The notes: generated by a model from the letters alone, not told the origin. Shown: positions 1-21,904, numbered from the stretch's first letter. The stretch is DNA of 24,000 nt from Promethearchaeota archaeon (GCA_048938105.1 JBHLMN010000023.1:80079-104078); one strand, 5' to 3'. Made by a program: numbers and translations.

Positions 1-267
1 TTGATGGGGCCGATAATAAAAAGTCCATTCTTGAAAAAGGAGCTTGGACAGATTTGTGTTTAATGCAGGTTTTCCAATATCAGCAACCAGGAAATTTGTC
101 CAGTGTCCCTTTATAGAAAGTAACTCACAATTTTCACACGCAGTAATATAAATATCACTCTTTTGTTTCAAAATTGGATGATTTTCGAGATAACATTGTT
201 GACATAACCGACTGAAGAAAATTTTGTGAGAACCGCACACAATACATTGGGGTGCCACATTATCCAT
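1..267 (-). CDS. NMD3-like 60S-subunit biogenesis/export adaptor homologue, N-terminal part only (gene runs off the window start)
   Basis: Absent from the ORF track because it has no stop in the window. A reverse-strand ATG at 267..265 opens an 89-codon stop-free frame reaching position 1: MDNVAPQCIVCGSHKIFFSRLCQQCYLENHPILKQKSDIYITACENCELLSIKGHW... It has three CxxC dyads (C8/C11, C22/C25, C44/C47) followed by GHW, spaced like the NMD3 N-terminal zinc domain. It lies next to other translation genes. Confidence 0.55.
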   Translation of the reverse strand, partial: MDNVAPQCIVCGSHKIFFSRLCQQCYLENHPILKQKSDIYITACENCELLSIKGHWTNFLVADIGKPALNTNLSKLLFQEWTFYYRPHQ

Positions 268-284
268 TGTAGGCCCTCCAATAC

Positions 285-662
285 TTATAATGGGGGGATA
301 GAGAATATCAACAAATGTGGAATCTTTTTTCCTTCTGATGAAGTAAACCAAAGAACTGCATCTTTATTGATGAGGTTTTTACTAATACCAAGTTCAATAA
401 CTGAACCTACAACATTAATGTTTGCATAATTTTTCATTAATTGTAGGGCATCCTGTGCTGCTATCTCTTGTCCCCTGTAAAAATCGGCTGGGATTTTCAT
501 TCGTGCCTTCTCGTTGAATATTTCTTGATCTAGCAGTGATTCATCACATAAAGCTAGTATTTCGACATTATTTTTTCGATGGATCTTGAAATATACACGG
601 ACAGGCGATGATGTAGTTTGAGAAGAATTATTTGACCGCAACACGGGCACCGCAAGCTTCAC
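285..662 (-). CDS. DUF424-family small archaeal protein
   Basis: 125-aa ORF. The core VRVYFKIHRKNNVEILALCDESLLDQEIF...IPADFYRGQEI...NINVVGSVIELGISKNLINKDAV...IPHLLIFSI matches my memory of the DUF424 pattern (V-K-x-H-R, AxCDxxLLG, FYxGE, NxVG, PH). The annotated ATG overlaps aIF2-beta by 35 nt. In-frame GTG/TTG codons a few codons downstream could be the true start. Confidence 0.6.
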   Translation of the reverse strand: MKLAVPVLRSNNSSQTTSSPVRVYFKIHRKNNVEILALCDESLLDQEIFNEKARMKIPADFYRGQEIAAQDALQLMKNYANINVVGSVIELGISKNLINKDAVLWFTSSEGKKIPHLLIFSIPPL

Positions 663-6040: not shown

Positions 6041-6628
6041 TCAAGCTCTGGCTATTTGAGACTCTTTAGTTCCATAAAGCTGAATCATAAGGATTTCACG
6101 AGCTAATGATTGAAATGCACGTTTGACTCCGAGACCCGTGGTCGCAACGGTCTCATAGATGGGATAATCTTGGATTTTCAACTTGCTTACCAGCTCTGAT
6201 CTAGGTAAAGCATCCTGTACATCTCGCTTGTTAAGAGTAATCACAAGAGGGATGGTTTTTCCTAGTTGATCACCTAAACGCATTTTCAACTCATTGAAAG
6301 ATTCCACGTTCTCTTGAAATTGGGAAGCACTAGAATCGACAACAAAAATAAGACCATCTACTCCTCGTATCACTATCTTACGTTGGTGTTTGTGACGTTC
6401 TTGACCTGCAGTTGTATATACATCAAAAACAACACCTGTAGTTGCTTGCATTGGGACGAAATCGAAAAATAAGGTACGACCCGTGGGATCGGCTAATTGA
6501 GTAAATTTCCCTTTTTCAAGTCCATCCACTTTTTTATACAACCAAGCTAATGTTGTTGTTTTCCCACCCAGAGATGGGCCATAGAATACAACTTTGAATC
6601 GATGACGACCTTCTGCATCCTTTCTCAA
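6041..6628 (-). CDS. MglA-family Ras-like small GTPase
   Basis: It aligns block by block with Myxococcus MglA as I remember it: FYGPSLGGKTTTL (P-loop), RTLFFDFVPM (vs RTLFFDFLPL), YTTAGQERHKHQRKIVIRGVDGLIFVVDS (vs [29 protein letters not shown]), NKRD (G4) and ATTGLGVKRAFQSLAREIL. Confidence 0.88.
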   Translation of the reverse strand: MRKDAEGRHRFKVVFYGPSLGGKTTTLAWLYKKVDGLEKGKFTQLADPTGRTLFFDFVPMQATTGVVFDVYTTAGQERHKHQRKIVIRGVDGLIFVVDSSASQFQENVESFNELKMRLGDQLGKTIPLVITLNKRDVQDALPRSELVSKLKIQDYPIYETVATTGLGVKRAFQSLAREILMIQLYGTKESQIARA

Positions 6629-6674
6629 GAAATAAGTCTCCTCTGAAGGTTAGGAGTCGTGATTCAGAAATCTT

Positions 6675-7181
6675 TTAGAATTTTTCAAGTTCACGTAATG
6701 CTGCTTCTAGTTCATCTTTCTCAAGGCTTGTACGAATCTCAGGAGTCGCAGAAGCCACCCCTCCAACTGGTCGTGTGGGTTTTCCAGCTAGAAATTCGTC
6801 CAAAATATTACTGAGTTCTTCATTGGCTTTTCTCATGAGTAGACGGATCATTCCAATATTGACATCAGCATCAGATATGATTGTCAAAATTCCACGCCCG
6901 CAGGCACTTGCGAAGATCTTACCAGTATCAAACTCTGAAGTAACAATATCTAGGCCACCAATAGTTAGATTCAGGCCCTGTTCTGCAGATGCCATAAACA
7001 CAGCTGAAGCAATAGCCCCAATACCATCTACATCAACACTTACATAGCTGAATTTAGAGACGTGGGCAATTGTAAGACCAGTTCGATCAACAAGAATCAC
7101 TTTTTTTATGCCTGGTTCGCTTTTTATGATCTTACTAAGTACAGTGTCAAATCTTCTGGGATCTATCATGGTTATTACCAA
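6675..7181 (-). CDS. Roadblock/LC7 domain protein, MglB-like partner of the downstream GTPase
   Basis: 168 aa. The Roadblock pattern is GIKKVILVDRTGLTIAHVS...DGIGAIASAVFMASAEQGLNLTIGGLDIVTSEFDTGKIFASACGRGILTIISD. It lies 46 nt upstream of the MglA-like gene on the same strand. The track start is a TTG at 7181; an alternative ATG is at 7169. Confidence 0.75.
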   Translation of the reverse strand: MVITMIDPRRFDTVLSKIIKSEPGIKKVILVDRTGLTIAHVSKFSYVSVDVDGIGAIASAVFMASAEQGLNLTIGGLDIVTSEFDTGKIFASACGRGILTIISDADVNIGMIRLLMRKANEELSNILDEFLAGKPTRPVGGVASATPEIRTSLEKDELEAALRELEKF

Positions 7182-11790: not shown

Positions 11791-12792
11791 ATGGTGGTTG
11801 AATACGTGAAAGAGTACTTTTTAAAGGCTAGTAATGCCTTGACACGTCTAAATAATAGTGTCTCAACTAATGCTCGAAGTGTTGCAGATATTACATTGAA
11901 GATCTATACAAAATTTGAGGAGATTCGATACACAAGTGAAGCCATTCCTGATTTCATTCTTCATCCTAATCAAACCAAATCCAACCTCAAATCGAGTGGT
12001 GAAATACGGGTTGCCCAATTGCTTGCTTCTATTCTTTGTGAGCGAATTACAGATCAATCAATGCGATTAGCTGAGGATCTTGATTTTAGAGAAGAGGATT
12101 TGGATGTTCGAGAAGAAATCCGTGTGATTCACGAACATGTTACCCGATTGAGTGAAGTTATCCAAGTTCAAAAGAAATTAGCTGATGGTGCACCTGTTTC
12201 AACTGAAAGCATTAAAGACTTGCAGAAAAAATACGATACTCGCATTAAACAGCTAGAACAAGAGCTTTTGCGTAAAGAAGGTCGTGCTTTAACTGTAACT
12301 GCTCTAGATGCCACAAAAAAGCCGAAACTGTTTGGAAAGGGAAGATTTGAAAAAACACTAGATGATCTAATTCTTGAATATGGGAAAAATCTTCGTGCTA
12401 GTTCTGGTGGTTATATTTCGCTCGCAAATCTTTATACAGCTTTAAAGACTCAAGTTCCTGATGTCGAATTTTCTACAAAAGATCTTGAGAAATCCTGTAA
12501 ACGTCTCAAAAAACAATCTCTCATTGAAGGAATCGTAAAACGATCAGGGGTCAAGATAGTAGAATTTGTTCCAGTCACTCTTGGGAGTGATGCGAGGAAA
12601 GTTTTTGATTTAGCAGTTAATAAAGGATATGTCACACTCGAAGAGGTAATAATGGGTACCAAATGGGATCAACAACGTGTTGTTAGAGTTCTTGAAAGTC
12701 TTGTTAACCAAAAAATTGCTCGAAAAGTTTCCTCTCTTGATACAGGAGATCAATATTATTTTCCTGGATTATATGGGGACAATAGTTGGTAG
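11791..12792 (+). CDS. ESCRT-II Vps22/SNF8 (EAP30)-like protein: helical N-terminal half plus tandem winged helices
   Basis: The C-terminal ~140 aa align colinearly with human SNF8/EAP30 as I remember it. GGYISLANLYTAL matches GGLITLEELHQQV. FSTKDLEKSCKRLKK matches VSQDDLIRAIKKLKA. VNKGYVTLEEVIMGTKWDQQRVVRVLESLVNQKIARKVSSLDTGDQYYFPGLY matches EKNGYVTVSEIKASLKWETERARQVLEHLLKEGLAWLDLQAPGEAHYWLPALF. Confidence 0.8.
   Translation: MVVEYVKEYFLKASNALTRLNNSVSTNARSVADITLKIYTKFEEIRYTSEAIPDFILHPNQTKSNLKSSGEIRVAQLLASILCERITDQSMRLAEDLDFREEDLDVREEIRVIHEHVTRLSEVIQVQKKLADGAPVSTESIKDLQKKYDTRIKQLEQELLRKEGRALTVTALDATKKPKLFGKGRFEKTLDDLILEYGKNLRASSGGYISLANLYTALKTQVPDVEFSTKDLEKSCKRLKKQSLIEGIVKRSGVKIVEFVPVTLGSDARKVFDLAVNKGYVTLEEVIMGTKWDQQRVVRVLESLVNQKIARKVSSLDTGDQYYFPGLYGDNSW
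12073..12114 (+). repeat. In-frame 21-bp tandem duplication inside the Vps22-like gene (EDLDFRE / EDLDVRE)
   Basis: gaggatcttgattttagagaa is followed directly by gaggatttggatgttcgagaa, with 17/21 identical positions. Confidence 0.7.
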
Positions 12793-12802
12793 GTGAAATC
12801 TT

Positions 12803-13693
12803 ATGGCAGAAGTAGAGAAATTTGGTGGATTATTTCGTAGAATAGGCGATGCTGTACATATTGGAACGAAAAAATTTAAAGGAAAGTCAATTTTGAATTC
12901 AGATTTTGGTCCAGAAGCAGAAAGTTCATTGATTTGTAGGTTAAAATCCGAAGATTTTGATGGTTTTCGGAAGTACGATGGATTCATTGTTAAAGACCCA
13001 GAAAATGCGATTTTATTACAATCTGGATCTTTAGTAGGGGTCGCTGGCAGTGGTATTTACGAGCTGGATAAAAGTGCTAAACGACCTGGAAGTGAAATTA
13101 TCTGGGTAACAAAGCGGGAATTCATTATCAAATGGGGAACACCTGGGATTTATACCTCTGATAATATAATGGTTGGTTGTTATGGTATTTCTCGTATGAG
13201 GGTTGTCAACCCCCGTAATTTTATTATGAATGTTGTTTCACATAAACAGTACTATTCTGGTAATGAATTAAAGAATTGGGTCAAGCAGACAATTATAGCT
13301 GCCGTAAAACATGTTTTATCTCGATATTCTGTACCAGAGATGCTCAAGGAGCGTAGAAGTTTAGAAATCCAAACACGTTCAGAACTTGGACCTGAAACTT
13401 CTCGTTGGGGATTAGAGTTAGTTGGACTGGATATTGGGGGCTTCAAAGTACCTGATGAATATCAAGCCTTGTTATCATATGAAATCGAAAAACAGGTTTT
13501 GAAGCAACGCAGGGAGTTAGCAGAAGAAAGAAAAATGTTTGATGATTTAACGGAAAAAGTAAAGAAATATGAACATATGCTTGAACAAGCTGATGAAATG
13601 TTTCTCAGTGGTAAAATCTCAGAGAAAAAGTATAAGGAACTTACAGATAAATATTCTAAAAAATTAGCTCAATTTAAAGCTCAAATTTCATGA
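12803..13693 (+). CDS. SPFH/Band-7 superfamily protein of the YdjI / PF13421 (Band_7_1)-like type with a C-terminal coiled coil
   Basis: It has an N-terminal GGLF motif, then the pattern IVKDPENAILLQSGSLVGVAGSGIYEL...IIWVTKREFIIKWGTPGIYTSDN...GCYGISRMRVVNPRNFI...WGLELVGLDIGGFKVPDEYQ, which I recognise from COG4260/PF13421 proteins. The last ~70 aa are heptad-rich (KQRRELAEERKMFDDLTEKVKKYEHMLEQ). It starts 10 nt after the Vps22-like stop. Confidence 0.7.
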   Translation: MAEVEKFGGLFRRIGDAVHIGTKKFKGKSILNSDFGPEAESSLICRLKSEDFDGFRKYDGFIVKDPENAILLQSGSLVGVAGSGIYELDKSAKRPGSEIIWVTKREFIIKWGTPGIYTSDNIMVGCYGISRMRVVNPRNFIMNVVSHKQYYSGNELKNWVKQTIIAAVKHVLSRYSVPEMLKERRSLEIQTRSELGPETSRWGLELVGLDIGGFKVPDEYQALLSYEIEKQVLKQRRELAEERKMFDDLTEKVKKYEHMLEQADEMFLSGKISEKKYKELTDKYSKKLAQFKAQIS

Positions 13694-15454
13694 TAATTTA
13701 TTTTCCTGCAAACTTCCTCCACATTCTGGGCATAAAATCATTTCTACTGTACTCATTTCTTTGTAGCAATCCAGGCATACTTTTAAGCTACAAGATGTGC
13801 AGAAATAGTTAATAGAATCAGTTTTTGGAAGTTCACATACACCACAAAGAAATTTTTCTTCGTGTTTTTTCAATTGTAAGGTCATTTCTCGAATGTTGAT
13901 CTTCCCTTGAATTACACCACGTAAGATATAGTTTTCTAATAATACGATTGTATCGCTATCAGATCGGTTTGATAAATCTATTATTTGTTTGAGTGGAATT
14001 TCAGCTTTAGACGACTTTTCTAGAAATTCAGAGAGACTTGGATCTAATTCAGATGATTTAAGTGAAATTGGTTCGTGTTCTATCCATCCGATTTTTAAAG
14101 GACCCTTTTTGCAGAAATGACACTCCTCAGTGCTAACTAAATTATAGGAATGAGTGTAATTAACTCTACAATATGGGCAATATCTGGGAAGATCGATAAT
14201 AAATGCAGAAATATTTCTACAAAACGGACATTCATGTTTACTTCCAGTAGAACGGCAATTTGAGCACATAATTCGTCTACAATTTTGACATTCAAAATAA
14301 AGATCCGGATCAGTATATGAAGATGTGTCTATTTGGCAAAAAATTTCAAAATGGTCTACACCTTTAACTAAAAAGGGATCAGAGGTTTCTCCCGAGATAA
14401 GTCGTAATCCAAGGAGTTTCGCTAGCTTAAAAATCCGATCTAAAAGTTTTAATGGGTCTAGATTCAATGATGATGCTAAATGTTCAACAGCAATTCCATT
14501 TTCGAACCACTCGTTTAAAGAAGGAGCAATGAAATCTTCTGTAGTTAAAGTCCCCTTTAAACTTTGATTTAAAATATTTAACAGTTTAAAAAAATCAGAC
14601 CTGTCTACATCGAGACGTTGAATCCAGAAATCAATAGGAATATTACGATAAACGAATATATCTTTTAAGATTTGGTTTATAATGTCCATAATTGGATAGA
14701 GGTAATTGTAATTAGCAGAAAAAATATAGCTGATTTGGTCACGATTTGCCTCCAAAAATTCTAGACATTTCTCTTCAGAGAGTTGTGTTAATTTACTAAT
14801 ATGGCTAATAGAGACTTCAGATTCCAAGAGAAAACTTGTATCGATAAAACGAATGACATATTCGATATTTTTTCGAATATCTGAGGGAGATGAGAAGTTT
14901 AAAGAAGTGAAATTATATATTCGTTGTTTTATTGGATCAATGTAACCAATGAAATGACTATCCTGAGCAAGAAGCTCCAGAACACCTTCCAAATGTTCTT
15001 CAGCCCAGTAAAGCTGGTTCAATAGGTATTTCAATCCTATTGCCGTGGTAGTGTTTAACCTTTGTCTGATTTCTGCTTTGGCTCCAGGTAAGGTATAGAA
15101 ATTTCGGTTTATTATATCAAAGAATCCCTCAAAACTTTGAGCTCCTATTTTAATTTGTTGTTCTAGTAATTCTCCTGGTAAGTTTGTAGTGTCAATAAGA
15201 TTACATATGTCTATAAAGCCTTTTGTTGCCAATTCACGGGATATTAATTGGTGAAGGAAGTTAATAGGGATGAATTTTTCATCATCAAAACTAACAAAGC
15301 CATTCAGCTCATTTGAGCCAATTTTTGTGCGTAAAAATGCAGCAATAACGCTTGGATTTTCCTTCGGAGCCATTTCACGGAATTTAAGAGGAGTATTTGC
15401 CATTTGAGCCTTTGTTAACCATTGATGTCTCTTTCTCCCAAACATTGGTATCAC
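13688..15454 (-). CDS. Uncharacterised 588-aa protein: repeated winged-helix-like modules, a central cluster of five CxxC dyads and a C-terminal C4C4 RING-like finger (candidate E3/scaffold)
   Basis: A long, clean ORF. The central module (res 389-448) reads C-x2-C-x4-C-x2-C-x8-C-x2-C-x13-C-x2-C-x15-C-x2-C. The C-terminal module (res 537-578) reads C-x2-C-x11-C-x2-C-x4-C-x2-C-x11-C-x2-C. Several segments look like WH modules, e.g. FIPINFLHQLISRELATKGFIDICNLIDTTNLPGELLEQQI and IVLLENYILRGVIQGKINIREMTL. The confidence is for the functional call; the CDS itself is about 0.85. Confidence 0.45.
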   Translation of the reverse strand: MIPMFGRKRHQWLTKAQMANTPLKFREMAPKENPSVIAAFLRTKIGSNELNGFVSFDDEKFIPINFLHQLISRELATKGFIDICNLIDTTNLPGELLEQQIKIGAQSFEGFFDIINRNFYTLPGAKAEIRQRLNTTTAIGLKYLLNQLYWAEEHLEGVLELLAQDSHFIGYIDPIKQRIYNFTSLNFSSPSDIRKNIEYVIRFIDTSFLLESEVSISHISKLTQLSEEKCLEFLEANRDQISYIFSANYNYLYPIMDIINQILKDIFVYRNIPIDFWIQRLDVDRSDFFKLLNILNQSLKGTLTTEDFIAPSLNEWFENGIAVEHLASSLNLDPLKLLDRIFKLAKLLGLRLISGETSDPFLVKGVDHFEIFCQIDTSSYTDPDLYFECQNCRRIMCSNCRSTGSKHECPFCRNISAFIIDLPRYCPYCRVNYTHSYNLVSTEECHFCKKGPLKIGWIEHEPISLKSSELDPSLSEFLEKSSKAEIPLKQIIDLSNRSDSDTIVLLENYILRGVIQGKINIREMTLQLKKHEEKFLCGVCELPKTDSINYFCTSCSLKVCLDCYKEMSTVEMILCPECGGSLQENKLS

Positions 15455-15570: not shown

Positions 15571-15885
15571 ATGGCTCAACAAAAGATTAAATGTACAAAT
15601 TGTGGTTATATTCCCCGAGATCTCCCTGTTTCTGGGAGCTGGTACTGTCCGAAGTGTGGAAAACGTACAGAAATTCCCCACCACCGCCCACGAGTCGCTA
15701 GAAAATTCTATAAGAAGCCACGAATAACTCAAAAATCTCGAGATCAAGTAACAAGCAGAATCTATGATAAATTAACATATGAAAAAGTTCCCGATCTTGG
15801 GTTCAAAGAACCTTATTTAAAACCAAAAATTCCTCCAATTCTCCCCAAAAGAAGAGATAAAATACGATTATTTTATAAAAAATAA
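15571..15885 (+). CDS. Small basic zinc-ribbon protein, function unknown
   Basis: 104 aa. It has an N-terminal CxxC-x14-CxxC (KCTNCGYIPRDLPVSGSWYCPKCGKR) and a Lys/Arg/Pro-rich, probably disordered tail. It is divergent from the 588-aa gene across a 116-nt spacer. Confidence 0.5.
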   Translation: MAQQKIKCTNCGYIPRDLPVSGSWYCPKCGKRTEIPHHRPRVARKFYKKPRITQKSRDQVTSRIYDKLTYEKVPDLGFKEPYLKPKIPPILPKRRDKIRLFYKK

Positions 15886-15925: not shown

Positions 15926-17155
15926 TTAATTCTGAAATTTAATTTGCAAACGTATTTCTTCATCATCAATCAAAGAACTTAGTGTTATCCGATCACCATC
16001 AGAAAGAAATTTTTGGATGATCCCATTTTCAGGTATCATAAAGTTACCACGAAACCCAACATAATCTTTTTTGTGTTCTTCTCGAATTGTATCAAGAATA
16101 GATCTAAACTTTGATCTACAATCTACTGTTACGATTTGAATGGAATCTACAATGGTATTAGATTGGCCACATACTAGGCAATTTGGATCAGGAACTAGAT
16201 TGAAAGTGTTTATTGTCCCTGTTAGTGCAGAATATATGGTAAACGAAGGAATGCGGAATCTATGAGATTTCAATAAACCTTCAAGCGTTTTACGTTCTCT
16301 TTTTTTCATTCTCTCTTTTTTTTCTAGAAAAAGAGACTTTAGGATCTCTTGAGATTGGATTCCACTGACTACTGCATTAACTGTGATGAGACTGGGTACG
16401 TGGAAAAGGACTAATTGCATGAGTTCTTTTTCATCGAATTTTCCAAAATTATATTTATTAGCAAAATTATTTGCCAATTTCGTAAGTTCCGCAATATCTT
16501 TGGCTGAATTTTCAATAGGTGAGCGTACATGAGTTGTACTAAATTCATAAAGAGCTTTCCAAGCACAATGTTCTCTCTCACGAGGAACTCCCACTAAAGT
16601 ACAAGGAGCTGTTAAAACCCGAGTTTCATCAGGAGGTTGAGGGGTTTCACAAGCCAAACAAGCAGTAACATTTGGTTTTATATACTGAATTTGGCCGAAG
16701 TAGCCATCTGTAGCTGAATCTATTAAAGTTAATTTAAGGTCAACTGCTATTGCATTCAGATATTGTCGTGCCAAAAAGTTATCTACGCAACCAGCAATGA
16801 TGTCAACTTCGTGAAAAATCCTTTGAGGTAGGTTTTGGAGGAGGTTAGAATAACTTTCAATCTCAATATCAGGATTAAATCTTTCTCGAATCCGCTTTCT
16901 TGCTATTTCTGCCTTTTTTTTCCCAACATCTTCTTCTTTAAACAACATTTGACGATTTAAGTTTGAGAATTCTATAGTGTCCACATCAACAAGGATTAAA
17001 CGACCAACGCCTAATAAAGCTAAGTTCTTAGCTACTTCGCTACCTGTCCCTCCAACTCCTGCTATTAAAATCGCGCTATCTTCAATAATATGTTGATCCC
17101 AAAGAGATAAACGTTCTTGTCGGTCATATTTAGAAGAAGGAAGATCTTGTGTCAT
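15926..17155 (-). CDS. Ubiquitin-activating enzyme E1-like (ThiF/MoeB fold, UBA3/UBA2-type)
   Basis: The Rossmann ATP motif is IAGVGGTGSEVAKNL and NLNRQ follows. The crossover-loop zinc dyad plus catalytic-Cys region TACLACETPQPPDETRVLTAPCTLVGVPREREHCAWKA is colinear with UBA3 (TACIEC...P-x-CT...PR-x-PEHCI). A second dyad DPNCLVCG is present, and the C-terminal ~70 aa could be a UFD-like domain. Confidence 0.9.
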   Translation of the reverse strand: MTQDLPSSKYDRQERLSLWDQHIIEDSAILIAGVGGTGSEVAKNLALLGVGRLILVDVDTIEFSNLNRQMLFKEEDVGKKKAEIARKRIRERFNPDIEIESYSNLLQNLPQRIFHEVDIIAGCVDNFLARQYLNAIAVDLKLTLIDSATDGYFGQIQYIKPNVTACLACETPQPPDETRVLTAPCTLVGVPREREHCAWKALYEFSTTHVRSPIENSAKDIAELTKLANNFANKYNFGKFDEKELMQLVLFHVPSLITVNAVVSGIQSQEILKSLFLEKKERMKKRERKTLEGLLKSHRFRIPSFTIYSALTGTINTFNLVPDPNCLVCGQSNTIVDSIQIVTVDCRSKFRSILDTIREEHKKDYVGFRGNFMIPENGIIQKFLSDGDRITLSSLIDDEEIRLQIKFQN

Positions 17156-17204
17156 ATCTTGAAATCTTCCTAATAGAATCCTTTAACATTACAATAAGAG
17201 GGAA

Positions 17205-17525
17205 TCAACCCCCCTTAATCTGATCTGGAACTATCATGAGAATTGCATTTTGTTCGATTCCATAGGAAGAAAGATTGTTTGAAGGATTCATTCTTCTTCC
17301 CTTGAATAATAAAGCGATTGGTACAACTTCTGGGATATTAAATGCATCACGAGCTGCTGTGATAGCTTGAAATACAGTTCCATTAATATTAATGTATTTT
17401 TCACGGATATTTTGATCTGGAGGAAGTTGTGGATCTTTAAAGCGAATTTTTATCATTTTTTCAATACCACTGTCAGGAGCTTTTCCTGTAGAAGTAGAAT
17501 CCCATATTACGTCCTTTTTACTCAT
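17205..17525 (-). CDS. Ubiquitin-like beta-grasp modifier ending in Gly-Gly-stop, with an N-terminal extension of about 23 aa
   Basis: The core MIKIRFK...TVFQAITAARDAFNIPEVVPIALLFKGRRMNPSNNLSSYGIEQNAILMIVPDQIKGG* is colinear with ubiquitin (MQIFVKT...[34 protein letters not shown]). The track start is a GTG at 17534. I prefer the ATG at 17525 because AGGTGA lies 5 nt upstream of it. An internal ATG at 17456 would give an 83-aa ubiquitin-sized product. Confidence 0.85.
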   Translation of the reverse strand: MSKKDVIWDSTSTGKAPDSGIEKMIKIRFKDPQLPPDQNIREKYININGTVFQAITAARDAFNIPEVVPIALLFKGRRMNPSNNLSSYGIEQNAILMIVPDQIKGG

Positions 17526-17546
17526 TTTTTTCACCTTTCTGTCTAC

Positions 17547-18341
17547 TTAAGTATAAAACATACGTTCAATTTCTGAAAGTGTAGTAAGAATATCTATTCG
17601 TCCTTTGGCATAATCCTCTAAAGGTCCTCGAATAAGAGGGTATTTAGTTAGAATATCACTTTCAAGACCTATAGGTAAATTCTTTTTTCTCTTAATGATA
17701 AAATTTATTACTTCACCATTTTGGGCATAAAATCTTACAGTAATCTCTTTTTTTGCTGCTGATGCATCATAGTTTGCAAGAATTTGACGTATGAGAGGAT
17801 CATGTTCTTCTTGAATCGCAGCAGAAGCTTCAGAAGATGCCATAATGGGTTCTCCCATAACCTGGGGGAGTTCTTTTTCAGCCTTCTGATAGATTTCTTC
17901 TAATACGTCCAATACTGAACTTGAGCCAGGGGTCCAGTTTTTCATTACTTTCAAATCGTTGATTTCACAATCTAAGACTTCTCTAAGCTTAGCAGGACCA
18001 TCAATGTAGGGTCGATCAGGCAAATCATCCAACACAAGAAGAAGAGGAAAAGCATATTCCTTTACTTGCATCTTAATCCTTAGTTTACCTACTTCATCAC
18101 CAACAAATTCCCCAGGAAAATTTTCAAGGATTTTCTGTGATTCTTGATAAATAAGAAAGTAATTTTCAGCTTCCTCCTCTGCATCCATCATTTTGGCTTC
18201 TGCTGGTGTAATAGCTGCCCGTTTAAGGTAATTTGTCATGTCACAGTATTCACACTTTACAGGGTGCTGATATGATGGTCTTATTGGAAGGGGGGCCCCA
18301 CAGCCGCTACATTGAGAAATATCAGTTTGAATATCTTCCAT
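17547..18341 (-). CDS. Uncharacterised 264-aa protein: N-terminal zinc ribbon plus a putative degenerate UBC/RWD-like core lacking HPN
   Basis: The zinc ribbon is C11-x2-C14-x15-C30-x2-C33. Res ~55-160 follow the E2 secondary-structure logic: a helix (AENYFLIYQESQKILENFPG), a strand meander (EFVGDEVGKLRIKMQVKEYAFPLLLVL), a DLPDRPYI loop in place of YPFKPP, a single Cys125 and NWTPGSSSVLDVLEEIYQ resembling the E2 W-SP-x-helix. It is the first gene of the Ubl-E1 operon, with a 12-nt gap to the Ubl ORF. The fold assignment is by eye only. Confidence 0.4.
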   Translation of the reverse strand: MEDIQTDISQCSGCGAPLPIRPSYQHPVKCEYCDMTNYLKRAAITPAEAKMMDAEEEAENYFLIYQESQKILENFPGEFVGDEVGKLRIKMQVKEYAFPLLLVLDDLPDRPYIDGPAKLREVLDCEINDLKVMKNWTPGSSSVLDVLEEIYQKAEKELPQVMGEPIMASSEASAAIQEEHDPLIRQILANYDASAAKKEITVRFYAQNGEVINFIIKRKKNLPIGLESDILTKYPLIRGPLEDYAKGRIDILTTLSEIERMFYT

Positions 18342-18562: not shown

Positions 18563-19105
18563 GTGCAGGATTTACATTCTAGACGACTACGAGAAGAGTT
18601 CAAACGGATGCTGAAAACTTATCCCCCAAAAACAAGTCCCATTAAATGGACTATAGTCAATAATGACCTTCATCATTACAAAGCGACTATTAAAGGAAAA
18701 AAAAATACTCCTTATGAGGGAGGGAAATGGAAGATCACTCTTGACTTACCTTCTGAATATCCCTTTAAACCTCCTATTATCAACTTTTTAACCCCTATTT
18801 ATCACCCTAATATCGCAACTGGTAAAACTCAATGGAAGTGGGGCTCCAATGTATGTTTAAGTCTTGTAAATTGGAATAATTTAGGGAAACCTGGTGGTTG
18901 GAAGGAAACGATAACCTTGCCAAGCGTTTTTGAACATATTGAAATGATGCTAGATGTTTTTAAGACAACTGGGGATGTGGATTTTCCAGAATATCTTGTT
19001 GATCCAAATGATCCTTTTAATCCTAAAGCTGGAGAGATTATGAACACAAATTTTGATAAATTCTGGGAAATAGCTGTTAATTGGACCAAAAAGCATGCAA
19101 AGTAA
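18563..19105 (+). CDS. Ubiquitin-conjugating enzyme E2 (UBC fold, HPN + catalytic Cys)
   Basis: The N-terminal helix is RRLREEFKRMLK. Further blocks are TPYEGGKWKITLDLPSEYPFKPPIINFLTPIYHPNI (HPN at res 81-83), catalytic Cys98 in NVCLSL, and the C-terminal DPNDPFNPKAGEIM...FWEIAVNWTKKHA. GTG start. Confidence 0.9.
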   Translation: MQDLHSRRLREEFKRMLKTYPPKTSPIKWTIVNNDLHHYKATIKGKKNTPYEGGKWKITLDLPSEYPFKPPIINFLTPIYHPNIATGKTQWKWGSNVCLSLVNWNNLGKPGGWKETITLPSVFEHIEMMLDVFKTTGDVDFPEYLVDPNDPFNPKAGEIMNTNFDKFWEIAVNWTKKHAK

Positions 19106-19137: not shown

Positions 19138-19737
19138 ATGTCTAATCATAATAAACAAAAAGATTTGAACTCAGAAAATTCTGAAATAACAGAAGAAAAA
19201 ACTACTGATAAAATACAAGAAAGCTCCTTTAGTAGACAAGTGGAAATCAAAAAGGTAAAAATTTCTTCATCTCCCCAAGTTCAGTCAGTCTCAATCTTAG
19301 GAAATCTACTTGATGAAATAACTGAATATTCGGTAAAATCTATGCCTAGGGAAGCTATTGGTCTGTTAGGTGGAAGAGAACTACGTCCCAAAGAAATAGA
19401 AATATTAAAAATAATTTTTGTGTCAGAAGGTGACGAAATCTCTGTTTCCTTTTCTGATGAAGATTTTGAGGCTTTCGAAAATATTTTAGAAGATGATTGT
19501 TATTGTTGTGGGTGGTGGCATTCTCATCCAGGATATGGCTTATTTCTGTCTCAAACAGATATAAATACTCATATTTTTTCTTTTCAGCTCCATAATGATC
19601 TTTCTGTTGCACTTGTTATTGAACCTACTATAAGAGATATGACTGGCCGTGCCGCTTTTCAATTTTACCAAGTTATAAGCGAAGATAAGAAGGATTCTTT
19701 CGGATACAAGGAAATTGCTAGCTATATACAACATTAA
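19138..19737 (+). CDS. JAMM/MPN+ metalloprotease (Rpn11/AMSH-like deubiquitinase)
   Basis: The JAMM motif is complete: Glu in PREAIGLLGG, then WWHSHPGYGLFLSQTDINTH (H-x-H-x7-S-x2-D). It has a ~45-aa low-complexity N-terminal extension and starts 32 nt after the E2 stop. Confidence 0.88.
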   Translation: MSNHNKQKDLNSENSEITEEKTTDKIQESSFSRQVEIKKVKISSSPQVQSVSILGNLLDEITEYSVKSMPREAIGLLGGRELRPKEIEILKIIFVSEGDEISVSFSDEDFEAFENILEDDCYCCGWWHSHPGYGLFLSQTDINTHIFSFQLHNDLSVALVIEPTIRDMTGRAAFQFYQVISEDKKDSFGYKEIASYIQH

Positions 19738-19925: not shown

Positions 19926-20735
19926 ATGAGTTCGATGAAGTTGAATTGGGGGTTTTTTGAGTTTCATCTCGAATATTTAACTCGTTTTTTCCTTCAAGAT
20001 GGATATGGGATGATAGACTATATTTTGATTTTCCTTGGTCCAGGGACAGTTTTATTCTTTACATTCTACCTTTTATGGGCTGGAAGGCGAAAAAATCGCA
20101 AAATTATGCATTTATCACGTGAAGCTTTACTAGATGTCTTTGCAAACGAATTTGATGATCTAGTTATGGAGCAGATGAGTTCAAACGGGGGTTTATTAAT
20201 TCCCAAGTACAAGAAATCTTATGATATACCTTTCCAAGATTTTCGTGTAGTATTTGCCCTAGAAGAAAGGCATCTCATGTTATCAGTCATCATCTCATGG
20301 TTTTCAGGAGTAAATGATTATATTGCACTAGAGGCAAACTCGAAAAAGGGAGAAGTACGTACTCAAATTCCTACCAAGATTCAAATTATACCTAAACATG
20401 AAGAAGGTCAAATAAGAAAACATCAGGATCTCCTGTTTAAACTGGAAGATATTGAACTTGGAGTAAAAAGATTTGATGATGTTTTTTTGGTGAAAGCGAC
20501 CACCCAACGGACAGGAACATACTTTCTAGGTGATAAAAACCTTCTGAAACTAATTCACAATGTTAGAAAAGTAATTGTTAGAATTTCAGTTGATTCTGCT
20601 GACGACCCATCTCTTCGTATTTATGCACGAATTAACAAAGATTTGAATCTTGAGAGGTTACACGCCCTTTTCATTGCATTTTGTGATCGGATTAATGAGG
20701 TTTCTGAAAAAGTGGTCATGAAGAAAAAACGATAG
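19926..20735 (+). CDS. Hypothetical membrane-anchored protein (one N-terminal TM helix plus a ~210-aa soluble domain)
   Basis: A hydrophobic helix MIDYILIFLGPGTVLFFTFYLLWAG is followed by the positive cluster RRKNRK. The remainder is hydrophilic with no motif I recognise. Confidence 0.55.
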   Translation: MSSMKLNWGFFEFHLEYLTRFFLQDGYGMIDYILIFLGPGTVLFFTFYLLWAGRRKNRKIMHLSREALLDVFANEFDDLVMEQMSSNGGLLIPKYKKSYDIPFQDFRVVFALEERHLMLSVIISWFSGVNDYIALEANSKKGEVRTQIPTKIQIIPKHEEGQIRKHQDLLFKLEDIELGVKRFDDVFLVKATTQRTGTYFLGDKNLLKLIHNVRKVIVRISVDSADDPSLRIYARINKDLNLERLHALFIAFCDRINEVSEKVVMKKKR

Positions 20736-20779: not shown

Positions 20780-21343
20780 TTATAAAAGATCGATTTTTTC
20801 AGTCACTCTTTGACGGAGCCATTCAAGTCCTTCCTCGACGTTAAAACCAGTTTTAGCTGAAGTGGGAACGATAGCATATGAATGTGTCGTGACTTTGTGA
20901 AGGTTAAGCCCTCGCGCAACCTCTCCAGCTGAAGCAGCATTTTCTAGATCTTGCTTGTTGGCAAGTACTAAAATTGGTATGTTTTCTACCTTATCATTGT
21001 CAAGGACATATTTCCATAACTCCATCCTAGCTTCAGTGAGTCTGGGCCTATCAGCTGAATCTACTACATATACGATTCCCATACTACCTGACATGTAGCT
21101 TTCCCAAAGAGATTCACGAAAAGCTTCTTGTCCCCCAATATCCCAAGAAATAAATCGTACATTCCCAGAACTGAATTCATCAACATTCATCCCCAGTGTT
21201 CGGAAAGTACTACTGTTAAATTCTCCAGAAGTAATTCGTTTGACTAATGTGGTTTTTCCAGCCTGGTCAAGACCTAACCACGCAATTTTCACAGTTAACT
21301 TTTCTTTGGCAAATTTAGCACGGAGCTTTGAAAGGAAACTCAT
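20780..21343 (-). CDS. Arf/Arl-family small GTPase (Arl8-like by eye)
   Basis: G1 is GLDQAGKTTL. The interswitch/G3 signature is WDIGGQ, G4 is NKQD and G5 is SAKTG, followed by EGLEWL. The N-terminal segment MSFLSKLRAKFAKEK looks amphipathic. The stretch SGEFNSSTFRTLGMNV...VRFISWDIGGQEAFRESLWESY...IVYVVDSAD resembles Arl8. Confidence 0.88.
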   Translation of the reverse strand: MSFLSKLRAKFAKEKLTVKIAWLGLDQAGKTTLVKRITSGEFNSSTFRTLGMNVDEFSSGNVRFISWDIGGQEAFRESLWESYMSGSMGIVYVVDSADRPRLTEARMELWKYVLDNDKVENIPILVLANKQDLENAASAGEVARGLNLHKVTTHSYAIVPTSAKTGFNVEEGLEWLRQRVTEKIDLL

Positions 21344-21352
21344 TTAGGGCAC

Positions 21353-21904
21353 CTATCTGCTTTTCTGTGACATTCTACGTTGAAACCTGTCGCTCATCCA
21401 CTGCCAAGGTTCCTCAACCCCTTCACCTGTTAAGGCTGAGCATGGGTAGACTGCGAATGTTCTTGGTCTTGCAGCCATCTCCTTCTCGAGCTCTAACGTG
21501 TGGATAATTCTTTCCAATGTCATTGCTTCTCTTAAATCTTGTTTATTTGCCAAGAAAAGGAATGCAGAGTCTTCTGGCGCCCATTGAATGACATTTTTCA
21601 ACCATTTTCCTGCATTTTCAACTTTAGATCTGTCTGCAGAATCAAATACAAACACAATACCTGATGCATCTGAAACAAATGGTTTCCATAGGCTAGTAGG
21701 AAATGTGGCTTGACCACCCAGATCTGCTGCCATTACTTCAATATTGCCAATTTTTAAAGTTTCAATATTCATCCCCATTGTTGGAACGGTCTCTAAATCA
21801 TCATCTCCCTTAAGTCTTTTTACTAATGTAGTTTTCCCCGCATTTGCAAGACCAACAAATGCTATCTGATTTTCTATTTCTCGACCAAACAATTTTGTCG
21901 GCAT
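21353..21904 (-). CDS. Divergent Arf-like small GTPase (paralogue of the downstream gene)
   Basis: G1 is GLANAGKTTLVKRL. G3 is DLGGQ, with AAD replacing the WD of Arf. G4 is NKQD and G5 is SALTGEGV. It lies 9 nt upstream of the other Arf-like gene on the same strand. Confidence 0.8.
   Translation of the reverse strand: MPTKLFGREIENQIAFVGLANAGKTTLVKRLKGDDDLETVPTMGMNIETLKIGNIEVMAADLGGQATFPTSLWKPFVSDASGIVFVFDSADRSKVENAGKWLKNVIQWAPEDSAFLFLANKQDLREAMTLERIIHTLELEKEMAARPRTFAVYPCSALTGEGVEEPWQWMSDRFQRRMSQKSR

Follow-up and report, generated by a model that had tools for sequence, protein, structure and literature searches.

A distant archaeal relative of UFL1 with paired zinc fingers as candidate E3 ligase or adaptor of a ubiquitin-type gene cluster in Hodarchaeales

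UFL1 is a scaffold-type E3 of obscure origin, and to our knowledge its eukaryotic form contains no RING, HECT or RBR domain. An Asgard origin of UFL1 has already been proposed, on phylogenies only (PMC10183829), Asgard fusions of Vps28/Vps23 with an E3-UFM1-ligase domain have been described (Liu et al., 10.1101/2020.10.19.343400), and Ufm1 homologues have been reported in Asgard archaea (Koestlbacher et al., PMC12962969). Activity is known for small stand-alone RING E3s from ubiquitin operons of other archaea (10.1101/2023.07.25.550441), and the Hodarchaeales have been counted as one of the archaeal lineages nearest to eukaryotes (PMC10307638). Here we analyze a stretch of 24,000 nucleotides of DNA from Promethearchaeota archaeon (GCA_048938105.1 JBHLMN010000023.1:80079-104078), hereafter the window, in which a minus-strand gene encodes a 585-amino-acid protein combining a UFL1-like winged-helix array with several zinc modules. 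The gene lies beside those for an E1, an E2, a ubiquitin-like protein (Ubl) and a deubiquitinase. The protein is a distant Asgard (Hodarchaeales) relative of UFL1, although not a member at the level of the Pfam model, and in the literature searched we found neither such a combination of domains (a UFL1-like array followed by finger, ribbon, winged helix and finger) nor its linkage to a ubiquitin-type cascade described.

An earlier reading of this DNA, made from the sequence alone, had proposed an open reading frame (ORF) at 13688-15454 on the minus strand as the candidate E3 or scaffold of the cluster. The ORF is real: it has 588 codons, opens with GTG and ends in a stop codon at 13688-13690. 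The true start, however, is most likely the ATG at 15445, which we prefer because all homologues open with MF(G/K)RK; the resulting 585-residue product is 100% identical to database protein P0001. Residues are numbered throughout in the 588-codon frame, counted from 15454. The chain runs from an N-terminal helix through six winged helices, a first finger (A), a zinc ribbon and a seventh winged helix to a second finger (B), and five zinc ions are expected per chain. The parts of the gene, with the evidence for each in parentheses, are as follows.

13688..15445, minus strand: UFL1-like zinc-finger gene, complete (ORF; identity to P0001, 585 amino acids)
15401..15445, minus strand: N-terminal helix, residues 4-18 (DSSP on the model; conservation)
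14357..15400, minus strand: six winged-helix units (AlphaFold2 model, Foldseek, profile search)
14207..14356, minus strand: finger A, residues 367-416 (hhalign paralogy, conservation)
14081..14206, minus strand: zinc ribbon, residues 417-458; ligand pairs C426-x2-C429, C445-x2-C448 (invariant cysteines)
13865..14041, minus strand: seventh winged helix, residues 472-530 (model)
13691..13864, minus strand: finger B, residues 531-588, C4C4 (spacing, isolated-domain model)

The winged-helix array is homologous to the N-terminal array of UFL1. An AlphaFold2 model of the whole protein, built on an alignment of 52 sequences, has a mean predicted local distance difference test score (pLDDT) of 87.9 and a predicted template-modelling score of 0.75. 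It consists of a helix at residues 4-18, six winged helices extending to residue 366 (approximate bounds 19-63, 64-121, 122-181, 190-254, 255-312 and 313-366), a zinc region rich in beta structure (370-460), the seventh winged helix (472-528) and, at the C-terminus, a further zinc domain. The sequence-only reading had seen a winged-helix flavour in at least four segments, which was correct but an undercount, there being six units and a seventh between the zinc modules. When the model was searched against the Protein Data Bank (PDB) with Foldseek, human UFL1 (8ohd_A) ranked first, with an expectation value (E) of 1e-9 over 335 columns. A DDRGK1-UFL1 chimera (8b9x) followed at 2.6e-8 and the winged-helix array of SelB at 2.7e-5, whereas PCI or ESCRT-II proteins reached only about 0.01-0.06.

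Profile searches of the PDB gave the same answer. A family profile of the whole protein matched UFL1 chains at E 1.9e-6 to 1.4e-5, and a profile restricted to residues 1-368 and including distant homologues (A5) matched UFL1 at 2e-10, with the next match at 0.25. The sequence match covers UFL1 residues 21-249, approximately. It begins directly behind the N-terminal helix, with residue 23 of the query at UFL1 residue 21, and this helix, in which K8 and W12 are almost invariant among the 52 homologues, sits where that of UFL1 does. UFL1 is thus the sole significant PDB sequence match as well as the top structural match, and for this reason we regard the winged-helix array as UFL1-like by homology and not in style alone. 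Of the resemblances in style suggested earlier, to UFL1/DDRGK1 or ESCRT-II, that to UFL1 therefore stands. Resemblance to DDRGK1 is faint and concerns the seventh winged helix, which is weakly similar to the DDRGK1/PCI winged helix (DDRGK1 8c0d_B, E 0.4). Homology of the winged helices to ESCRT-II did not hold up, as there was no Pfam EAP30 match and Foldseek gave E 0.03-0.06.

Searches of individual family members against Pfam returned PCI in 49 of the 52 relatives (best 1.6e-8) and E3_UFM1_ligase in 29 of them, the latter below threshold (best 3e-6). In subfamily B and C proteins, PCI matches of 1e-8 to 4e-8 fall in the region equivalent to the seventh winged helix. The window protein itself scores 11.5 bits against PCI (PF01399), for which the cut-off is 22; its model contains no helical-repeat solenoid of the PCI type ahead of a winged helix, and subunits of the CSN and proteasome lid reach Foldseek E of 0.01-0.06. 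Fragments of human UFL1 used as queries found weak matches both to the window family and to the Asgard proteins P0092, P0132 and P0143.

The zinc modules are the second distinctive part of the protein. In the C-terminal domain the cysteines are spaced C537-x2-C540-x11-C552-x2-C555-x4-C560-x2-C563-x11-C575-x2-C578, corresponding to nucleotides 13721-13846 and exactly as described in the sequence-only reading. None of the 18 cysteines of CxxC motifs varies among 52 full-length homologues, the most distant of which is at 42% identity; the same is true of C373 and D376, and H407 is nearly invariant. The ligand pattern is also retained in a homologue that is only 26% identical. The pattern of cysteines is therefore not a product of chance.

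In the middle of the protein, five CxxC dyads start at residues 389, 397, 409, 426 and 445 (nucleotides 14111-14290). These had been taken for one module; the dyads and their position were correct, but they belong to two units. The first is finger A, whose ligands are C373-x2-D376, C389-x2-C392, C397-x2-C400 and C409-x2-C412, that is, one C-x2-D and three of the dyads. Finger A (370-416) is paralogous to finger B (hhalign of profile A3 against A2, E 7.4e-5), the alignment pairing C373 with C537 and D376 with C540. The remaining two dyads, C426/C429 and C445/C448, form a separate ribbon. D376 occurs in 52/52 sequences, and among relatives the first ligand pair of finger A varies as C-x2-[C/D/H]. 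Searched against known families, the middle zinc region gave a best E of 0.09 in a profile search of the PDB and nothing coherent in Pfam, while the model Prok-RING_4 gave sub-threshold matches to finger A in subfamily B. Mean column identity is 0.84 for finger A, 0.79 for the ribbon, 0.56 for finger B and 0.52-0.67 for the winged helices. Being better conserved, finger A and the ribbon have a claim to be the functional core that is no weaker than that of finger B. Many of the profile-search matches, the named sources of which are Asgard, carry the finger-plus-ribbon unit as a mobile module, usually behind a winged helix, and it is also found in the unrelated architectures of P0097 and P0106.

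Finger B is predicted to be one binuclear cross-brace domain of a RING/ZZ/B-box-like kind, and we propose that fingers A and B are paralogous cross-brace domains. A model of the isolated domain (residues 528-588; pLDDT 84.4) contains two short hairpins, and its helix begins at the third cysteine pair. RING and ZZ domains superpose on it over 54-55 columns at 2.3-3.1 A, with E of 0.04 or worse, as expected because the domain is small. The top RING matches are RNF20/Bre1, Ring1b, TRIM37, RNF213 and TRAF3, and the top ZZ matches p62, Ada2 and CBP. On the question of a cross-brace or two independent ribbons, raised earlier as a check for HHpred or AlphaFold, the model favours a single cross-brace domain. 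Profile matches of finger B are to RING (MAT1, TRIM32, BRE1, NOT4), ZZ, PHD, C1, B-box and double-zinc-ribbon models; MAT1 is found at 1e-3, NOT4 at 0.03 and zf-RING_4 in 43/51 members. Assignment to one family (RING, ZZ, B-box, C1 or double ribbon) by sequence was attempted and abandoned, the matches being all sub-threshold and intermixed. The earlier description of a C4C4 RING-like C-terminus is therefore upheld for the eight ligands and their RING-class spacing, but not for membership in a curated RING family. Among the 52 sequences, the position C1+2 of finger B is V or I in 50, C6+4 is M in 47 and C7+1 is P in 45; we take these positions to correspond to those that contact the E2 in RING-E2 complexes.

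The genes flanking the UFL1-like gene that bear on its function are listed below.

11791..12792, plus strand: EAP30 (ESCRT-II-like; Pfam)
12803..13693, plus strand: SPFH/Band-7 (Pfam); convergent with the UFL1-like gene, overlapping its 3' end by 6 nucleotides
15571..15885, plus strand: 104-amino-acid protein, zinc ribbon at the N-terminus and tail rich in Lys and Arg, beside the UFL1-like gene
15926..17155, minus strand: E1, ThiF fold (Pfam ThiF, 1.7e-55; PDB UBA1, 8e-40)
17205..17534, minus strand: Ubl, with GG followed by the stop codon (Pfam, orthologue profile)
17547..18341, minus strand: 264-amino-acid protein with an N-terminal CxxC...CxxC zinc ribbon, directly upstream of Ubl and E1
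18563..19105, plus strand: E2, canonical UBC-type (Pfam UQ_con, 7e-24; PDB UBE2D, 8e-20)
19138..19737, plus strand: JAB/MPN deubiquitinase (Pfam JAB, 7.6e-9)

The set of E1, E2, Ubl and deubiquitinase recognized in the sequence-only reading is present, with Pfam matches to ThiF, UQ_con and JAB and a Ubl of ubiquitin type. The neighbouring cascade is ubiquitin-type, not UFM1-type. Its E1 is nearest to the active adenylation domains of UBA1, SAE2 and UBA3 (PDB, 8e-40 to 1e-29), with UBA5 at 1.7e-19. A profile of the Ubl orthologues (A4) matches ubiquitin and not UFM1, and Pfam finds ubiquitin/Rad60-SLD in 16/16 orthologues. The E2 has an HPN...Cys motif and a UBE2D-type YPFKPP loop.

Two other identities were considered for the cascade. 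By eye the Ubl resembles UFM1, and mouse UFM1 (1j0g) aligns over its full length at E 1.1, but a UFM1-type cascade was rejected on the evidence of the profile, Pfam, the E1 and the E2. An anti-phage system of the Bil/CBASS-like kind was also rejected: PADLOC has no match for the UFL1-like protein, the E2 or the Ubl, and for the E1 and JAB it gives generic domain-level matches only, far weaker than those to eukaryotic enzymes.

The Ubl reading frame begins with a poorly conserved extension of about 26 residues, and some orthologues start at an internal MIK(V/I)RF (83 amino acids), so that M27 may be the mature or true start. In 4/16 orthologues 1-3 residues follow the GG and would need processing.

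No small stand-alone RING protein had been noticed in the window, and this holds across every ORF with at least two CxxC motifs. Besides the UFL1-like gene these are the N-terminus of an NMD3-like protein, eIF2-beta, the 104-amino-acid protein, the E1 and the 264-amino-acid protein.

The same cluster is found in relatives at 67% and 49% identity. Little should be read into this, since gene order is conserved over all 24 kb in subfamily A, and for that reason linkage in this subfamily is weak evidence by itself. More telling is that linkage to E2, JAB and Ubl recurs in rearranged neighbourhoods. In subfamily B, whose protein is 26% identical over 599 residues (E 5e-68) with every ligand kept, the homologue at locus L004 lies beside an E2, a JAB and a 92-amino-acid Ubl, with a paralogue lacking finger B adjoining. 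At L007, also of subfamily B, the order is homologue, 104-amino-acid gene, JAB and E2, with the E1 about 2.5 kb further, and the flanks are otherwise unrelated. In subfamily C (L005), one strand carries EAP30, Band7 and the homologue, of which the second and third genes overlap, and a block of E1, Ubl and a 265-amino-acid gene is 8 kb off.

The two genes at L004 (L004:3596-5242, P0074, and L004:1653-3509) are divergent UFL1-like paralogues, one of 618 amino acids and full length, the other of 548 amino acids and without finger B. The contig that bears them (P0074, P0183) is labelled Thorarchaeota, while its closest relatives, at 60-87% identity, are labelled Hodarchaeales, Hodarchaeota or Heimdallarchaeota, and it may be a mislabelled or misbinned metagenome-assembled genome. 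Because of these labels, we do not claim that the family is present outside Heimdallarchaeia.

Taken together, we think it somewhat probable that the protein serves the ubiquitin-type system beside it as a scaffold-type E3 ligase or as an adaptor. It is the best candidate for the missing ligase because it is a relative of UFL1, has two RING-like fingers and lies beside a set of E1, E2, ubiquitin and deubiquitinase genes; no other RING-like candidate is present in the window. The earlier proposal of a candidate E3 or scaffold is thereby strengthened as regards the scaffold, which is related to UFL1, and by the recurrent linkage to E2 and JAB, but no curated RING model identifies the finger. Ligase activity, the element that would bind the E2 and the substrate are all inferred. 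In such a system the E1 would activate the GG-ended Ubl and the UBE2D-like E2 would become charged with it. The 585-amino-acid protein might then recruit the E2~Ubl by a RING-like finger or, in the manner of UFL1, by its N-terminal helix and first winged helices, while the winged-helix array would serve as a rigid platform holding the target; the JAB enzyme would reverse the modification. For recruitment by a RING-like finger speak the conserved hydrophobic residues at C1+2, C6+4 and C7+1 of finger B and the UBE2D-type Phe loop retained by the E2. By analogy with UFL1 the ribosome is a plausible substrate, and an ESCRT-II/SPFH membrane assembly is a plausible one in view of the neighbouring EAP30 and Band7 genes.

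Several observations weigh against this reading. With respect to UFL1, the window protein does not match Pfam E3_UFM1_ligase (PF09743, cut-off 23.2 bits) even at E 10, while other Asgard proteins exceed the cut-off (P0092, for example, at 72.8 bits). The C-terminal half of UFL1, with the regions that bind the ribosome and CDK5RAP3, is absent, its place being taken by a winged helix and the zinc modules. In eukaryotes UFL1 acts together with UFC1 and UFM1; the genes beside the archaeal protein are instead of ubiquitin type. With respect to a RING-like action of finger B, finger A is the better conserved of the two, and ZZ domains fit finger B slightly better than RINGs do: the p62 ZZ superposes with a template-modelling score of 0.71 (2.3 A), compared with 0.5-0.56 for RINGs. 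ZZ domains bind peptides rather than E2s. Finger B scores below the curated cut-off of every RING, ZZ, B-box and C1 model in Pfam (17.4 bits against 27.9 for zf-RING_5; 19.6 against 27 for zf-RING_4). Among isolated domains, 51/51 match DZR_2 and 44/51 match DZR, below threshold and with scores similar to those of RING models. A basic linchpin residue after the last cysteine is typical of many active RINGs; in finger B the residue after C8 is Gly, not Arg or Lys. Finally, E2 binding by finger B is a conjecture from conserved residues at the positions where RINGs touch E2s.

In the alternative that survives best, the protein would have no catalytic role and would act as a ubiquitin receptor or as an adaptor linked to ESCRT, reading ubiquitylation rather than writing it. 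Its array would dock on ESCRT-II-like/SPFH assemblies and its zinc modules would bind Ubl or peptide, as ZZ, NZF and UBZ domains do. The gene runs towards the EAP30-Band7 pair and overlaps it, and the three genes share a strand in L005; ESCRT-II subunits are among the weak structural matches, in the Asgard protein P0143 winged helices like those of DDRGK and UFL1 share a chain with a Vps28 C-terminal domain, and ZZ domains fit finger B no worse than RINGs. UFL1, on the other hand, is a better match than ESCRT-II or PCI proteins by at least four orders of magnitude. Moreover, two subfamily B loci retain the link to E2, JAB and Ubl without EAP30 or Band7 (one of them, L007, ends about 100 bp upstream of the gene), and the zinc modules match no known family of ubiquitin-binding fingers. 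We consider this role, and the mode of docking that goes with it, unlikely, although less so than the alternatives that follow.

A second alternative concerns the fold: the eight C-terminal cysteines might form two sequential zinc ribbons, in which case the analogy with RINGs would be empty. The DZR_2 and DZR matches are in keeping with this, and the AlphaFold2 models carry no zinc. Against it, the model superposes over its full 54-55 residues on RING and ZZ domains, with the helix at the third pair. The ligand substitutions point the same way. Among 116 finger instances of relatives, 43 of the 47 complete variant fingers change at positions 2 and 6, from C to D, H, K or T at position 2 and from C to H, D, S or A at position 6. 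This near restriction to two positions supports a cross-brace, because only in a cross-brace do they share one zinc site. In P0087, ligand pairs 1 and 3 are lost jointly and pairs 2 and 4 are retained, which is a cross-brace signature. We therefore regard two ribbons as distinctly improbable for finger B.

Least probable, and in our judgement very unlikely, is that the protein binds nucleic acid or the ribosome, or regulates transcription, with no direct role in Ubl conjugation and a neighbourhood that is a by-product of synteny: the RNA-binding array of SelB is its second-best fold, there are many weak matches to DNA-binding winged helix-turn-helix families and to the zinc modules of NOB1, L37ae and TFIIH, the 24-kb region is syntenic throughout in subfamily A, and the adjoining 104-amino-acid protein has a ribbon like that of RNA polymerase subunit P and a basic tail, but no DNA-binding family is matched significantly, E2, JAB and Ubl stay linked to the gene even in loci whose remaining neighbourhood differs, and binding to ribosomes would be compatible with a ligase, because UFL1 binds ribosomes while acting as an E3.

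Two of the neighbouring genes may belong with the scaffold-type ligase or adaptor that we favour. The 264-amino-acid gene heads the minus-strand run 15926-18341, followed by Ubl and E1. Its product has no match in Pfam, PDB sequences or PADLOC, a gene of similar size occupies its position in L001, L002, L003 and L005, and it is a candidate component of the Ubl system. The ribbon of the 104-amino-acid protein is weakly similar to archaeal RNA polymerase subunit P/Rpo12 (E 0.016, residues 2-45 aligned to 2-45). Genes of 99-105 amino acids adjoin the UFL1-like gene in L001, L002, L003, L005 and L007, in subfamilies A, B and C; counterparts are at L001:9542-9856, L002:9501-9818, L005:11780-12079 and L007:1936-2250. 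Their size and position suggest that they are homologous, and the 104-amino-acid protein may be a partner of the scaffold.

Source names among the protein matches place the window in the Hodarchaeales. It also carries genes for Arf-family GTPases, Roadblock, archaeal eIF2, GINS and ThrRS. On the minus strand at 6041-7181, a Roadblock/LC7 protein lies beside a small Ras/Arf-like GTPase, a pairing like that of Ragulator and Rag, which is kept in L001 and L002; the same two loci keep a pair of tandem Arf-family GTPases that flanks the ubiquitin cluster (20780-21904, minus strand). Downstream of JAB, at 19926-20735 on the plus strand, is a gene for a 269-amino-acid protein with one predicted transmembrane segment and faint matches to DUF3137 and CCDC47, at the position of which relatives have a gene of 259-286 amino acids. 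A Cys-rich ORF that runs off the start of the window (1-363, minus strand; MDNVAPQCIVCG...LCQQC...CENC) resembles, by eye, the N-terminal end of an NMD3-type 60S export/maturation factor.

UFL1-like domains were known in Asgard archaea before this analysis, and the fused fingers and the ubiquitin-type linkage give the earlier remark concrete content. If the protein is the ligase of the cascade, it would fill the place of the missing E3 in the Hodarchaeales ubiquitin cluster, tie together the origins of the ubiquitin and UFM1 branches, and provide a compact system of five genes for reconstitution in vitro. The EAP30 and SPFH neighbours suggest a connection to membrane remodelling that can be tested. 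The protein is also a possible clue to the origin of UFL1 and a candidate for its pre-eukaryotic form. Speculatively, and with low probability, the ancestor of UFL1 could have been an E3 with RING/B-box-like fingers serving a ubiquitin-type E1 and E2 in Asgard archaea, which lost its fingers and switched to another E2 and modifier during eukaryogenesis, the Hodarchaeales protein being a living representative of the ancestral state. This candidate is open to experiment because all partners are encoded within 6 kb.

Comparison with described systems shows how the protein differs from each of them. In the archaeal RING operons of Caldiarchaeum and Helarchaeia, as here, a candidate E3 is encoded beside an E1, an E2, ubiquitin and a JAB/Rpn11-like enzyme. 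In contrast to those operons, the finger here is duplicated, forms the tail of a 585-amino-acid scaffold and falls outside the recognizable RING families, and there is no small RING gene. The all-Cys RINGs of the CNOT4 type (zf-RING_4, PF14570; MAT1, TFIIH p44, the zf-UDP of CesA) share with finger B eight cysteines spaced nearly as in CNOT4, a cross-brace, as predicted, whose helix begins at the third pair, a Pro at C7+1, and residues at C1+2 and C6+4 that are hydrophobic. Unlike them, finger B has C-x2-C as its second pair instead of C-x-C or C-x-H, and lacks the basic linchpin. With ZZ domains and B-box 1, finger B shares the motif Y-x-C-x2-C-x4-C-x2-C. In its relatives position 6 is C, H or D; alternation of C and H at this position is the B-box 1 pattern. 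It differs from both in its last pair, which is C-x2-C at x11 rather than H-x(n)-H, and in its sub-threshold Pfam scores, and no conserved acidic pocket is evident in the alignment of finger B.

In the fusions of Liu et al., for which P0143 may serve as an example, a UFL1/DDRGK-like winged-helix array from Asgard archaea is likewise tied to ubiquitin/ESCRT biology. They differ from the window protein in carrying Vps28 and, according to Liu et al., adaptin-type domains and in lacking the module of finger, ribbon, winged helix and finger, and the similarity is remote (E 9e-4). P0143 itself (787 amino acids, from a JGI metagenome) contains zinc ribbons, DDRGK (2.4e-11), a UFL1-like array (4e-14), PCI and a Vps28 C-terminal domain (8.5e-7). 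Its order of DDRGK and then UFL1 is that of the engineered chimera 8b9x, and this arrangement of domains hints that the eukaryotic UFL1/DDRGK1 pair may derive from one chain.

UFL1 itself (PF09743; PDB 8ohd, 8qfc, 8c0d, 8b9x) is among the closest described relatives. Compared with it, the archaeal protein has in addition two fingers predicted to be cross-braced, one zinc ribbon and one more winged helix, the seventh, and it lacks the C-terminal half; its neighbours are ubiquitin-type rather than UBA5, UFC1 and UFM1, and no separate DDRGK1 partner is evident. What the two have in common is an N-terminal helix followed by tandem winged helices, set in the context of Ubl conjugation.

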